DNA of 24,490 nt, taken from contig NZ_JAEDAM010000097.1 of the NCBI RefSeq assembly GCF_018420025.1, positions 1 to 24,490 on the forward strand, in the 5' to 3' direction. The position numbers were made by a program, and so were the translations under genes. Of the stretch, positions 11,942 through 14,900 are shown one piece after another (within the stretch, counting starts at the first letter, position 1; every line of letters starts with the position of its first letter). Below the pieces are notes generated by a model. It was not told the origin of the DNA and searched no databases. It worked only from the letters and a program-made list of their open reading frames with translations. Source of the DNA: Candidatus Vampirococcus lugosii. GTDB lineage: Bacteria > Patescibacteriota > Gracilibacteria > Absconditabacterales > Absconditicoccaceae.

Positions 11942-14900
11942 TTATACTATAAAATTAGCAACCTTACCAGGTATATATATAATTTTTTTATATCATTTGT
12001 CAATATAAGAGTTTATTTTTTTATTTTCTTTTACTAAATTTAATAGATCATTTTGGTCAGCATTTTTTGAAATTTTTATTGTTCATCTAAATTTTCAATT
12101 TACTTGCACTGCCAAATTTACAACATCTATTTCCAATACTGAATTATCATAATCAGGCCATTTTCAAGATTTATATATACTTCATATATTTCAAATTAGA
12201 TTCCATAATTCATCAGCAATATGTGGTGCAAAAGGTGAAAGTATTAATATAAATTTTATTTTCCATTCTATAGCTAATTTTTCATCTTTGGGACATCAAA
12301 TATTTGCACAAATCATTAATTGAGCAATAGCAGTATTAAATTTATAATTTTCTATATCTTGTCAAACTTTTTTTATAGTTTTATTTAATTCAAACATTGC
12401 ATCATTATCATTTTTTGCTACTTTTCAAGTCGTAAATATATTCCAAACTTTATCCAAAAATCTTTTGGATCAAATAATTCAATTAGTATCCCAAGGAGCA
12501 GAATCAGTAAAATCTCAAATATACATTTCATAAAGTCTGAAAGTATCAGCTCAATATTTTTCTATTACATCATCTGGATTTTCTACATTTTTAAGACTTT
12601 TACTCATTTTTGCTACTATTTTTTCCAATTTTTCTCAACTTGATTTTTCATAAAATTCTCAATCTTTTTCTATAACTTCGTCATTTGGTACAAGTCATCA
12701 ATTTGATCTTTTATAAGAAAAAGCCAAAATTAATCATTGATTAACTAATTTTTTAAAAGGTTCATCAAAATTAACTACTCAAATATCAAACAAAAATTTA
12801 TGCCAAAATCTTGAATATAACAAATGTAAAACTGCATGTTCAACTCATCAAATATAAGAATCTACTTGATTCCAATAATTTACATTTTCTTTTGATACAA
12901 GTTCATTTTGATTTGAATGATCCATATATCTTAAATAATACCAAGAAGATCAAGCCCAATTTGGCATTGTATTTGTTTCTCTCTTTCAATATAAATTATC
13001 AGCAAGTTTTACATCAACAAAATCTTTTATTCAATACAAAGGAGAATTTCAATCTCAAGCAGGTTCATATTTTTCTACTTCTGGTAATTTTAATGGTAAA
13101 TTATAATCACAAACTATTCTTGAATATAAGCCATCATAAATTTTTCAATATATTTTTTTTCATATAACTAAATATCTTATTTTATTTCAACAAATTCAAG
13201 ATTGACAAATCTTTTCTCATTCTTGCAAATCTTTTAACAAAACATAAGCTTTATTTTCATCATTTGCTTGAGAAATATCGTTTATTCTATCAAGTTTTTG
13301 TAAATCATCTTTTTGCAAATGTATCAATGGAATAGGTTCTCACCAATACCTCTGTCTACTAAAAAGCCAATCTCTTAATTTATAATTAACTTGTTTTTCT
13401 CAAAATCATTTTTGTTCAGCAAATTCTATAAGTTTTTGTCTTGCTTGTTCACTTTTTAATCAATCAAATTCGTTTGAATTTACCAAAATTCAATCTTCAA
13501 CAAAAGCAGTTTCTTTTTCAATAAATTGTTCAAAAGTATATTTATTAATATCATGTGTCAAAATATTTTTTATATCTTCTTTTTTTACCCATTCAAAAGA
13601 ATGTTTTATCAACTCTTTTTCATCAATTTCAATTTGTTTATTTGATTTCAATCTAAAATATAAATTTTTTACTACTCATCCAAAATTAAAATCTTTTCAT
13701 CAATGATGTCAAGAAGAATAAGCTTTCAATTCTTTTATAAATTCAAGATCTATATATCAAGTTTCTTCTTTTATTTCTCTAATTGCAGTTTGCAATGGAT
13801 CTTCTCATTCTTCAATTCATCAACAAACAAAAGTTTTATGTCAATCTGCTTTCCGATTCAAAATCAAAAATTCTCAATCTAAATTTTCAAGCATAACAAA
13901 AACTCAATTTGTATTTACAAATTTTTTTCATTCTTTTAATTTTTCACAAAACATAGGAGCTATACTTTTTTTTATTTCCAATCAATATTTTTTTGCAAAT
14001 TCAAAATCTCTTTCATCATGAGCTGGTACTGCCATTACTGCTCATGTTCAATAATTTCATAAAACATAATCTCAAATCCAAAGTGGAATTTTTTCATCAT
14101 TGAAAGGATTAATAACATAAGATCAAGTAAAAACTCAAGTTTTTTCTTTTGTAGTTCTATCAAGATCAGATTTATTTTTTGATTTTTCAATATAATCAAA
14201 ACAATCTTTTTCAAAATCTTTTTTAATAAAATTATTTATATTTTTATGATCAGGAGCAACAACAGCATAAGTCATACCAAAAACAGTATCTATTCTTGTT
14301 GTATAAACTGAAATAAATTTACAAGATTTTGAACAACATCATTCATTATTCTGTAAAGAATTTTTATTAAATTCTCAATCACATTTTTCATACAATTTCA
14401 TTTTAAATTCACATCATTCACTTTTTCAAATCCAATTTTTTTGCATTTGTTTAATAGATTCTGGCCAATCCAATTTTTCCAAATCATTTAATAATCTATC
14501 TGCATAATCTGTTATTTTCAATACCCATTGTTTAATTTTTCTTTTTTGAACTGTATTTCAACATCTTTCATGAGTTCAATCATTCAAAACTTCTTCATTT
14601 GCTAATCAAGTTTTACAAAAAGGACAGTAATTTATCGGCAAATCTTGTTCATAAGCAAGTCAATTTTCAAATAACTTCAAAAATATCCATTGAGTCCATT
14701 TATAATAATTTTCATCTGTTGTATCTATCTCTCTATTCCAATCATAACAAAATCAAATATTTTTCAATTGTTTTTTATACTTTTGTATATTTTCATCAGT
14801 TGTAATTCTAGGATGAATTCAAGTTTTTATTGCATAATTTTCTGCTGGAAGTCAAAAAGCATCCCAACCCATAGGATGCAAGACATTAAATCAATTTAAT

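Follow-up and report, generated by a model that had tools for sequence, protein, structure and literature searches.

A complete Nudix domain inserted in frame within the CP1 editing domain of a bacterial leucyl-tRNA synthetase

Bacterial aminoacyl-tRNA synthetases are usually seen as conservative in architecture. The leucyl-tRNA synthetase (LeuRS) of Candidatus Vampirococcus lugosii, a predator with a tiny genome, has in common with bacterial LeuRS enzymes that carry CP1, such as those of T. thermophilus (1H3N/2BYT) and E. coli (4AQ7), a full-length match to TIGR00396, the HIGH and KMSKS signatures, the T-rich motif, the editing Asp and the WGxPIP re-entry. It differs from the T. thermophilus enzyme in that a 150-aa enzyme domain stands where the CP1 loop of T. 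thermophilus has 11 residues, and a 68-aa mini-domain takes the place of the short zinc-knuckle region, with the Zn-binding cysteines absent. The 150-aa domain is a Nudix domain, and comparable joinings have been described. NF040702 (IleRS, N-acetyltransferase domain-containing), compared here by family name alone, likewise combines a class I synthetase of the Ile/Leu/Val group with an unrelated small-molecule enzyme domain, but the synthetase, the domain and the site differ; the Nudix domain of LeuRS sits within CP1, is polymorphic and may occur in several copies. Nudix or Ham1 domains are also joined to other enzymes in the NadM-Nudix, MutT1 Nudix-histidine phosphatase, RdgB/Ham1 and MazG fusions. 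These known housecleaning fusions are end-to-end and serve one pathway, whereas the LeuRS Nudix domain is nested in a loop of a translation enzyme. A literature search for a LeuRS-Nudix fusion found no publication on one, in agreement with the initial annotation of this DNA, which knew of none, and the insert is apparently undescribed so far.

The leuS gene and its inserts

The window analysed is a stretch of 24,490 nucleotides of contig NZ_JAEDAM010000097.1. ORF translation showed that the minus-strand frame 11945..15160 is open under translation table 25 (TGA = Gly). The initial annotation had described a LeuRS of 1050 aa with no stop or frameshift, and leuS is indeed one open code-25 reading frame. 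Its core features are:

11945..15094, minus strand: leuS coding region, 1050 codons, code 25; first ATG at 15094; TIGR00396 match
11942..11944, minus strand: leuS stop codon
14945..14956, minus strand: HVGH (synthetic-site HIGH signature), aa 47-50; its Gly is encoded by TGA
13376..14440, minus strand: CP1 editing domain, about aa 219-573, split by the Nudix insert; from PF13603 and the T. thermophilus alignment
14285..14302, minus strand: T-rich motif TTRIDT of CP1, aa 265-270
14006..14020, minus strand: HDERD of CP1, aa 359-363
12596..12610, minus strand: KMSKS loop, aa 829-833

The in-frame codons of leuS include 71 TGA, 5 GGN and 22 TGG. TGA encodes conserved glycines, namely G49 of HVGH and all four in the Nudix box (G425, G426, G430 and G446). 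The translated protein is 100% identical to the deposited NCBI protein of Candidatus Vampirococcus lugosii, and as a whole it scored 1021.2 bits against TIGR00396 (leuS_bact), above the curated cut-off of 548.4. In a 70-sequence LeuRS alignment, H47 and V48 of the HVGH signature, K829, M830, S831, K832 and S833 of the KMSKS loop, and the CP1 editing residues were invariant. Judged by these residues, the synthetic (HVGH, KMSKS) and editing (TTRxDT, HDxRD) sites are intact.

The editing domain matched PF13603 with 186 bits, and the match was broken into two stretches by the Nudix insert. CP1 aligned to residues 208-362 and 374-440 of the T. thermophilus LeuRS, the editing domain of which we take to be 224-417, a literature value. 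In this alignment the insert replaces the 11-residue loop 363-373 and lies 15 residues past the editing-site Asp. The initial annotation gave the coordinates of insert and box exactly; its placement of the insert between the end of CP1 and the re-entry was incorrect, since the insert lies inside the editing domain and splits PF13603. The insert and its motifs are:

13493..13966, minus strand: Nudix insert, aa 377-534 (S377..D534), at the tip of a CP1 beta-hairpin; from PF00293, the structure model and Foldseek
13754..13822, minus strand: Nudix box of 23 residues, aa 425-447
13763..13780, minus strand: catalytic REIKEE of the Nudix box, aa 439-444

The strands that flank the insert are EIKKSIA and GILVNS, with junctions KK/SIAP and FVED/GILVNS. 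Within the whole protein, PF00293 (NUDIX) matched aa 396-515 with 55.1 bits (E 1e-14), and the excised insert scored 60.1 bits, both above the cut-off of 21.1. The AlphaFold model of the insert had a pLDDT of 93.1 and a pTM of 0.87. Its N- and C-terminal strands are adjacent, which fits the requirement of a domain insertion, and aa 380-530 formed the most confident region of the full-length LeuRS model. Foldseek matched the model of the insert to many Nudix structures with probability 1.00 and TM values of up to 0.73/0.83; the top matches, at TM 0.57-0.83, were small monomeric Nudix enzymes, including 2azw, NudI, RppH, NudB and Ap4A hydrolases. These results confirmed that the insert is a complete Nudix domain, in frame within CP1 of LeuRS, as the initial annotation had proposed in describing a whole fold with its box.

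Foreign origin was considered on the basis of composition and was rejected. The insert has a GC content of 22.6%, compared to 24.1% for the remainder of leuS; the corresponding values are 7.6% and 9.5% for GC3 and 7.6 and 6.6 for TGA per 100 codons, and none of these sets the insert apart from the gene around it.

LeuRS contains further additions relative to the T. thermophilus enzyme:

13109..13312, minus strand: second insert after WGEPIP, a beta-rich mini-domain of aa 595-662; aligned position in T. thermophilus 440-449
14321..14392, minus strand: Cys-rich expansion at the CP1 entry, aa 235-258; 19 residues more than T. thermophilus

The second, smaller insert noted initially after WGEPIP is real. 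It stands where the T. thermophilus LeuRS has 8 residues (440-449) in the short zinc-knuckle region, is 72-77 aa long in most of the 120 closest relatives, and likewise shows mosaic exchange. In the full-length model it forms strands at 602-662 with a pLDDT of about 90 and 66, and a Pfam search with it gave no match. The Cys-rich expansion had a pLDDT below 50 at 239-242 and 251-256. In relatives, the CP1-entry site holds an alpha/beta hydrolase, Ham1, tandem Nudix domains or an uncharacterised module, which measures 130-160 aa at LeuRS insertion sites. In this LeuRS family, Ham1/ITPase occupies two sites other than that of the Nudix insert, at times alongside Nudix.

Conservation and nearest relatives of the Nudix domain

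The initial annotation described a textbook Nudix box, and the sequence fits Gx5Ex7REUxEExGU at all positions but the last, where Tyr replaces the usual Ile, Leu or Val. E440, E443, E444, G425 and G446 were invariant in 42/42 orthologous inserts, although mean insert identity was only 34%; loss of the REUxEE glutamates in orthologues, named at the outset as evidence against the domain, was seen in none of these 42. When free Nudix proteins were added to the alignment, the three Glu were the only invariant columns. A relaxed form of the box was intact in 172 of 199 copies. In one insert subfamily Gln takes the place of the first box Glu and the box Arg is missing, so that activity may be changed or lost in some copies. 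For five pairs, dN/dS was 0.03-0.19 in the insert, compared to 0.05-0.10 in the LeuRS core, with equal dS. These values indicate that the insert is under purifying selection.

A strict regular expression suggested that most orthologues had lost the Nudix box, but this apparent loss arose because the database proteins had been translated with TGA as Trp; the box is conserved when W is read as G. Many database copies are translated in this way, so that the glycines of the box are hidden and precomputed domain hits are missed.

Among curated Nudix equivalogs, the RppH models (NF001936 and the related PRK00714) scored best, at 36.9-37.3 bits, which is below the cut-off of 118. They matched 25 of 49 members of the insert family, weakly, and YtkD (RNA deprotection pyrophosphohydrolase) matched 19 of 49. 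The MutT 8-oxo-dGTPase models TIGR00586 and NF008044 gave 19.4-22.9 bits against cut-offs of 97.9 and 148. Because no curated equivalog threshold was reached, the substrate class is a guess. Ap4A hydrolases were among the top matches (1f3y, E 3.4e-5; 3i7u, E 1e-12; 1ktg; 4ijx) and were not separated from NTPases. The nearest free proteins are Nudix enzymes of 130-150 aa with 30-41% identity. The insert shares its fold (TM up to 0.83), a complete box and a similar size with RppH/NudH, the Ap4A hydrolases (NUDT2, Aquifex aq_158), NudI, NudB and MutT-like enzymes; it differs from these small monomeric enzymes in not being free-standing and in having conserved residues specific to the insert family (K467, N470, H498 and W502). 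On the best reading, its nearest types are RppH, Ap4A hydrolase and NTPase, and it is dispensable for aminoacylation.

Distribution and exchange of the insert

A Nudix insert was present at the same site in 42 of the 120 closest LeuRS relatives, and further loci were searched for with a hand-made gapped DNA pattern. The insert was found in at least 120 species genomes, distributed over most CPR/Patescibacteria lineages and one low-GC Bacillota clade. It is peculiar neither to the V. lugosii genome nor to Absconditabacteria/Gracilibacteria. The annotation names given to these LeuRS proteins include 'class I tRNA ligase family protein', 'hypothetical protein' and even 'RdgB/HAM1'. P0001 and P0002 were considered as LeuRS-Nudix fragments from a code-25 organism and rejected as such; they represent a free-standing 255-aa gene that joins Nudix to a remnant of CP1, and the genome in question, labelled Clostridia, uses the standard code.

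Insert identity and core identity gave a Spearman coefficient of 0.06, which indicates that divergence of insert and core is decoupled. In a neighbour-joining tree, the deep branches of which are unreliable, the distribution of the insert was patchy; within the Bacillota clade it was vertically inherited. LeuRS cores that are 89-95% identical carry inserts only 23-37% identical, as in a case of 95%-identical cores with 37%-identical Nudix alleles. Presence and absence were compared directly at two loci, L004 and L005, whose flanking DNA is 98% identical and which hold, in frame, either a 505-bp Nudix segment (L004) or a 136-bp linker (L005). The linker of the Nudix-less allele is 43 aa, and across relatives the loop at this site spans 13 to 167 aa. 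On the contig of the Nudix-less L005 strain no free Nudix of the LeuRS-insert family was found, and in this single case a MazG-phosphoribosyltransferase gene adjoins leuS. The Nudix module is present at three different LeuRS loops, with up to three copies per LeuRS, as exemplified by a 1735-aa ORF on a 346-kb Taylorbacteria contig; copies at three loops argue against the module being held in one set position with respect to the active sites of LeuRS. The insert is dispensable, modular and cassette-like, being swapped, lost and duplicated.

An intein or mobile element was also considered. Like inteins and other in-frame mobile insertions, the Nudix insert lies in frame in a conserved essential gene, is patchily spread and has presence/absence alleles. 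It differs from inteins in lacking the HINT fold, the C/S...HN+C/S/T junction, a homing endonuclease and flanking repeats, and in that the Nudix domain is retained in the mature protein and is under purifying selection. Terminal repeats, intein motifs and an endonuclease were sought at the insert and none was found; the flanks show chance AT-rich repeats only. The intein candidate was rejected, as the fold is Nudix and not HINT, the C-terminal junction is FVED/G, and junction residues are not conserved as splice motifs.

Possible roles of the Nudix domain

The reading we favour, to which we give an even chance, is that the insert is an autonomous, active Nudix pyrophosphohydrolase that uses LeuRS as a carrier, serves nucleotide housecleaning and behaves as a swappable cassette. 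LeuRS would work as an ordinary synthetase, with the Nudix lobe mounted on the end of a beta-hairpin at the surface of CP1. E440, E443 and E444 of the REIKEE helix would bind Mg2+, and the pyrophosphate bond of a nucleotide-type substrate would be cleaved. The most likely substrates would be non-canonical or surplus (d)NTPs, or dinucleoside polyphosphates, which would amount to nucleotide housecleaning; the host bacteria are thought to depend on scavenged nucleotides. LeuRS would act as an essential, constitutively expressed carrier and not as a chemical partner, and the cassette would spread, be replaced, be duplicated and be lost via recombination in the conserved flanks. The data establish the fold, the conserved catalytic residues, purifying selection, dispensability and the cassette behaviour; from these we infer the enzymatic activity, the substrate class and the independence from LeuRS chemistry. 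The Ham1/ITPase inserts and the MazG-phosphoribosyltransferase neighbour count in favour of the housecleaning theme. The housecleaning-carrier idea leaves unexplained why LeuRS rather than another protein repeatedly receives domains, as well as the strong divergence of alleles whose backbones are nearly identical, a pattern closer to evolution by diversification or conflict.

That LeuRS is repeatedly the recipient asks for a LeuRS-linked cause, and a coupling to LeuRS side-chemistry would supply one: the domain would hydrolyse Ap4A, Ap3A or Np4N formed by ATP or NTP attack on Leu-AMP and so hold alarmone or RNA-cap precursors low at source. Synthetases are a known source of Ap4A, and 1ktg (C. 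elegans), NUDT2 4ijx/3u53 (human), 3i7u (Aquifex), CT771 (Chlamydia) and RppH bound to Ap4A (7sp3) were among the best structure or sequence matches. These matches did not surpass those to NTPases (NudI, NudB, MutT-like), however, and Ham1/ITPase, which does not cleave Ap4A, is inserted likewise; LeuRS is not known as a prominent Ap4A producer. Natural insert-less alleles and copies at other loops argue against required spatial coupling and against any role built into LeuRS chemistry, and we regard this coupling as rather unlikely. Clearance of mis-activated adenylate, suggested in the initial annotation, is chemically unlikely because Leu-AMP is an acyl-phosphate and not a nucleoside diphosphate-X, and its hydrolysis falls outside Nudix chemistry. 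Moonlighting housecleaning and Ap4A hydrolysis are both possible, with housecleaning the better supported. The RppH equivalog is the NCBIfam family that most members match (25/49, compared to 19/49 for YtkD), RppH and Dcp2 structures were among the top matches, and LeuRS binds RNA; an RNA-directed enzyme of the RppH or decapping type could on these grounds use LeuRS as an RNA-binding platform, stripping 5'-pyrophosphate or Np4/NAD caps from RNAs, among which tRNA-Leu precursors or mRNAs are possible targets; a distinct RppH may be missing from these genomes. Every score was nevertheless far under the curated cut-off (37 vs 118 bits), mature tRNA already has a 5'-monophosphate, and neither the position-independent insertion at three loops nor dispensability suggests docking on bound tRNA. 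Such a role is quite unlikely.

The extreme allele divergence on near-identical backbones, the presence/absence polymorphism and the mosaic exchange of the second insert would also suit a variable module at the protein surface that is useful mainly for something other than catalysis, either a domain for binding, regulation or decoy that is selected to diversify, for example against phage, host factors or LeuRS-targeting toxins, or a semi-selfish in-frame cassette tolerated by the CP1 loops. The module moves among loops and among genes, and unrelated domains and the uncharacterised 130-160 aa module occupy the same sites. The invariant catalytic glutamates and the dN/dS of 0.03-0.19 are enzyme-like, unlike a decoy or junk; there are no terminal repeats, intein motifs or endonuclease, and inheritance in the Bacillota clade is vertical. 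Such a module is quite unlikely. A Nudix gene misjoined to leuS by assembly or annotation was also considered, the source being a single metagenome-derived contig; this explanation is effectively refuted. No stop codon breaks the frame of the insert, which resembles the remainder of leuS in GC, GC3 and TGA usage. Purifying selection spans the junctions, and these junctions recur in independent assemblies, namely in 42 of the 120 closest relatives as well as 119 further species genomes. Because the LeuRS-Nudix architecture was seen in more than 160 independent assemblies, it is not an artefact.

A broader reading, which we put forward tentatively as a possibility, is that in CPR/Patescibacteria and one clade of reduced Bacillota LeuRS serves as a dedicated platform for exchangeable in-frame enzyme cassettes, which recombination would carry from lineage to lineage and among three or four permissive loops, so that tRNA charging would be physically coupled to control of the nucleotide or alarmone (NTP, Np4N) pool. 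The cassettes named in this reading are Nudix (one to three copies), Ham1/ITPase, an alpha/beta hydrolase and the uncharacterised module. If true, bacteria with minimal genomes would evolve proteins, and couple translation to metabolism, in a way that has not been recognised before. As a practical matter, translation of database copies with TGA as Trp conceals the glycines of the Nudix box. The second enzyme nested in the proofreading domain of LeuRS is held by purifying selection across hundreds of uncultured species, yet it is swapped like an allele between near-identical strains. It offers a testable handle on how minimal-genome bacteria police nucleotide or alarmone pools, on why the CP1 loops of LeuRS tolerate inserted domains and how this may be used in protein engineering, and on the recombination-driven movement of in-frame domain cassettes.

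Leucyl-tRNA synthetase gene and its Nudix insert

The G+C content of the window is 20.7%. ORFs of at least 120 aa numbered 6 with table 11 versus 22 with tables 25 or 4, and the window is thus coding only with TGA as a sense codon. TGA occupies conserved glycines, including the one in HVGH and all four in the Nudix box, and the code is therefore code 25. The leuS gene is a minus-strand gene of 1050 codons, with its ATG at 15094, its end at 11945 and 71 in-frame TGA codons. The product was identified as a bacterial leucyl-tRNA synthetase (LeuRS) by TIGR00396 (1021 bits; cut-off 548), and it matches the NCBI entry 'class I tRNA ligase family protein [Candidatus Vampirococcus lugosii]' at 100% identity. 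The neighbors of leuS are ordinary housekeeping genes, including pheT, an amino-acid kinase, rsmG, a Mur ligase and a pseudouridine synthase, with an integrase at the far end. No Nudix gene is among these neighbors. The amino-acid-kinase gene, pheT and leuS lie on the same strand and possibly form one operon.

Features of the window
13493..13966, minus strand: Nudix insert, aa 377-534 of LeuRS
13754..13822, minus strand: Nudix box, within the Nudix insert of LeuRS
13109..13312, minus strand: insert 2, aa 595-662, after WGEPIP
15111..15983, minus strand: amino-acid-kinase family gene, 17 bases upstream of leuS
16005..18479, minus strand: pheT, normal 823-aa architecture, upstream of leuS
21434..22489: acidic repeat-rich lipoprotein-like ORF
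22611..23840, plus strand: phage-type integrase, near the window end

Translation confirmed that the initial annotation had placed both the insert (13493..13966) and its Nudix box (13754..13822) exactly. The Pfam NUDIX profile matched with 55 bits in the whole protein and 60 bits in the excised insert (cut-off 21.1). A structure model of the insert, built from 49 aligned sequences, predicted a Nudix sandwich (pLDDT 93.1, pTM 0.87), in which the LeuRS strands EIKKSIA and GILVNS form the first and last strands and are predicted to be adjacent, as a nested domain requires. In the full-length LeuRS model (pLDDT 82, pTM 0.72), aa 380-530 were the most confidently predicted part. The insert had been thought to follow the CP1 editing region; alignment instead placed it inside CP1, between residues 362 and 374 of T. 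thermophilus LeuRS and 15 residues after the editing Asp. The Pfam editing-domain match is cut into two stretches because the Nudix domain sits inside CP1.

Distribution and conservation

An insert of 158-167 aa was present at the same place in 42 of the 120 best LeuRS relatives, including that of Candidatus Absconditicoccus praedator. An exhaustive HMMER search with aa 341-590 against 1.84 billion cluster representatives returned 139 proteins at E<=1e-30, and most of the best 150 matches covered the query in a single stretch. Named examples came from Moranbacteria (KKP58971.1), Saccharimonadales, Paceibacterota and 'Patescibacteria group'. A DNA pattern joining EExG to RQRYWG at the proper distance, applied to one genome per species, matched at least 120 loci, a count to which code-25 lineages are additional since the pattern finds GGN glycines only. 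The Nudix domain lay inside one LeuRS ORF in 119 of the 120 matches listed. Among these, locus titles spanned most CPR lineages and also a coherent cluster of low-GC Bacillota (labels Bacilli, Mycoplasmatota or Erysipelotrichaceae), where insert identity tracks core identity (core, LeuRS minus insert). This wide occurrence at the same place in independent genomes excludes the chimeric assembly that the initial annotation had raised; the base composition of the insert is like that of the rest of leuS.

LeuRS-Nudix was also found in ten bins (L007, L023, L032, L054, L085, L100, L118, L042, L049 and L102) labelled Gammaproteobacteria, Bdellovibrionales or Woesearchaeota. Most of these had their nearest LeuRS relatives in the locus set among CPR-labelled bins, and the labels are thus probably wrong. 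In a Clostridium sp. chromosome (L104, CP091739.1) the gene is apparently split, with a 390-aa ORF starting inside the Nudix domain; this may reflect a frameshift, pseudogenization or a sequencing error.

Public collections give many Absconditabacteria/Gracilibacteria proteins (P0024-P0140) in translations with TGA as Trp (table 4), not Gly; for example, GGIEEGE reads WWIEEWE. Several insert-bearing LeuRS there lack a precomputed PF00293 match. The box first looked degenerate in relatives because of this translation; degeneration was rejected, as the box is conserved once W is read as G. Counted in this way, the glutamates E440, E443 and E444 were invariant in 42 of 42 orthologous inserts, as were G425 and G446. 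Position 439 was R in 29, K in 12 and A in 1, position 431 was E in 35 and D in 6, and K467 and W502 were near-invariant. A relaxed Nudix box was intact in 172 of 199 copies. Overall identity was 34% for the insert versus 70% for the core. In the five pairs with usable DNA, dN/dS was 0.03-0.19 for the insert and 0.05-0.10 for the core, with equal dS. Judged from these sequence comparisons, the insert is under selection as an enzyme.

Cassette behavior and other inserted domains

The Nudix insert acts like a cassette. A pair of contigs, each from a different sample, are 97.5-98.6% identical either side of the site, where the Nudix-bearing strain (L004) has an in-frame Nudix segment of 505 bp and the Nudix-less strain (L005) a linker of 136 bp, likewise in frame and unrelated to that segment. 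The CP1 loop ranges from 13 to 167 residues among relatives. Nudix alleles only 23-37% identical occur on LeuRS cores 89-95% identical, and divergence of insert and core is uncorrelated (Spearman 0.06). An insert-HMM scan of 270 LeuRS found two copies in 14 and three in 3. Taken over the whole scan, copies lay in the CP1 loop (~150), at the CP1 entry before TTRxDT (14) or after WGxPIP (~4). Those at the CP1 entry most resemble copies from the CP1 loop of other proteins. On a 346-kb Taylorbacteria contig, a single 1735-aa standard-code ORF carries Nudix domains at 259-390, 428-574 and 917-1091. In the sequence and in relatives' junctions, neither terminal repeats nor splice motifs accompany the insert, and there is no endonuclease.

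The second, smaller insertion that had been proposed is real and replaces residues 440-449 of T. thermophilus LeuRS. Of the 120 closest relatives, most have a segment of 72-77 aa there. Insert 2 is a predicted small beta-rich mini-domain with no match in a Pfam search, and is mosaic among the LeuRS with cores 89-95% identical, alleles being exchanged between near-identical backbones. In some relatives this region contains an extra 115-128 aa or a copy of the Nudix domain.

Other domains inserted in LeuRS of relatives (ref aa, reference numbering)
CP1 entry or anticodon-binding region (~ref aa 967-971), sometimes with Nudix: Ham1/ITPase (PF01725), in P0023, P0045, P0048, P0060, P0069, P0094, P0099, P0129, P0225
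CP1 entry (~ref aa 256): alpha/beta-hydrolase (PF06821 Ser_hydrolase), in P0029, P0043, P0095, P0110, P0120, P0229
~ref aa 236: 130-160 aa module, in P0046, P0107, P0115
~ref aa 605-613: 130-160 aa module, in P0041, P0042, P0115

One relative has a complete Ham1/ITPase domain (197 bits) alongside Nudix. MCK5490653.1 (NCBI), which clusters with P0225 and is identical to it, is a 1330-aa LeuRS with Ham1 and Nudix that is annotated 'RdgB/HAM1 family ... pyrophosphatase'. The putative esterase of the PF06821 insert, beside the editing site, might play a part in deacylation. The 130-160 aa module (...ILKHFxxKxxKEFxYRKNLL...VKTYY...) has no Pfam match, lies at two LeuRS loops and is present twice in P0115. 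Directly downstream of leuS in L005 (2939-3928, minus strand) is a MazG-phosphoribosyltransferase fusion gene (MazG 31 bits; cut-off 22), a single case; L004, 98% identical, lacks this gene. With Nudix and Ham1, MazG makes three families of house-cleaning NTP pyrophosphatases.

A free-standing 255-aa gene (L001:1466-2251; L002/L003:515-1282) was found in a standard-code genome of 25-29% GC, always with a CYTH-domain gene upstream; a cluster member is 'NUDIX domain-containing protein [Clostridia bacterium]' (MDO4381977.1). The gene joins a degenerate C-terminal part of LeuRS CP1, with the editing Asp lost (HIQEH), to an intact Nudix domain; L001 additionally has the LeuRS re-entry GDGIMINSGKLNGK. 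From its sequence, the gene seems to have arisen by capture of a LeuRS-Nudix cassette along with its flanks.

Possible roles of the Nudix module

The LeuRS-Nudix architecture is not described in the V. lugosii genome paper (PMC8080830), and no description was found in the searched full-text literature, which covers a minority of subscription journals. The initial annotation had suggested that the fused Nudix might clear mis-activated adenylate; this is unlikely, as Leu-AMP hydrolysis is not Nudix chemistry. Sequence and fold searches matched small monomeric Nudix enzymes (E. faecalis 2azw, NudI, RppH, NudB and Dcp2) and singled out no single subfamily. Among free-standing proteins, the nearest are Nudix enzymes 130-150 aa long, with 30-41% identity. 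Ap4A hydrolases of plant, worm, human, Aquifex and Chlamydia were matched as well, and coupling of the domain to Ap4A made by the synthetase is considered unlikely. RppH models were the NCBIfam families matched by most members, all far under cut-offs, and an RppH-like role on RNA is quite improbable. A conflict-driven or selfish cassette may account for the allelic hypervariability, which simple housekeeping does not explain, and is itself rated quite improbable.

The data support an autonomous, predicted active Nudix module that is carried by LeuRS and is dispensable for aminoacylation. The Ham1 inserts in LeuRS, together with the way the hosts live, suggest for this module a role in nucleotide housecleaning, to which we give an even chance.
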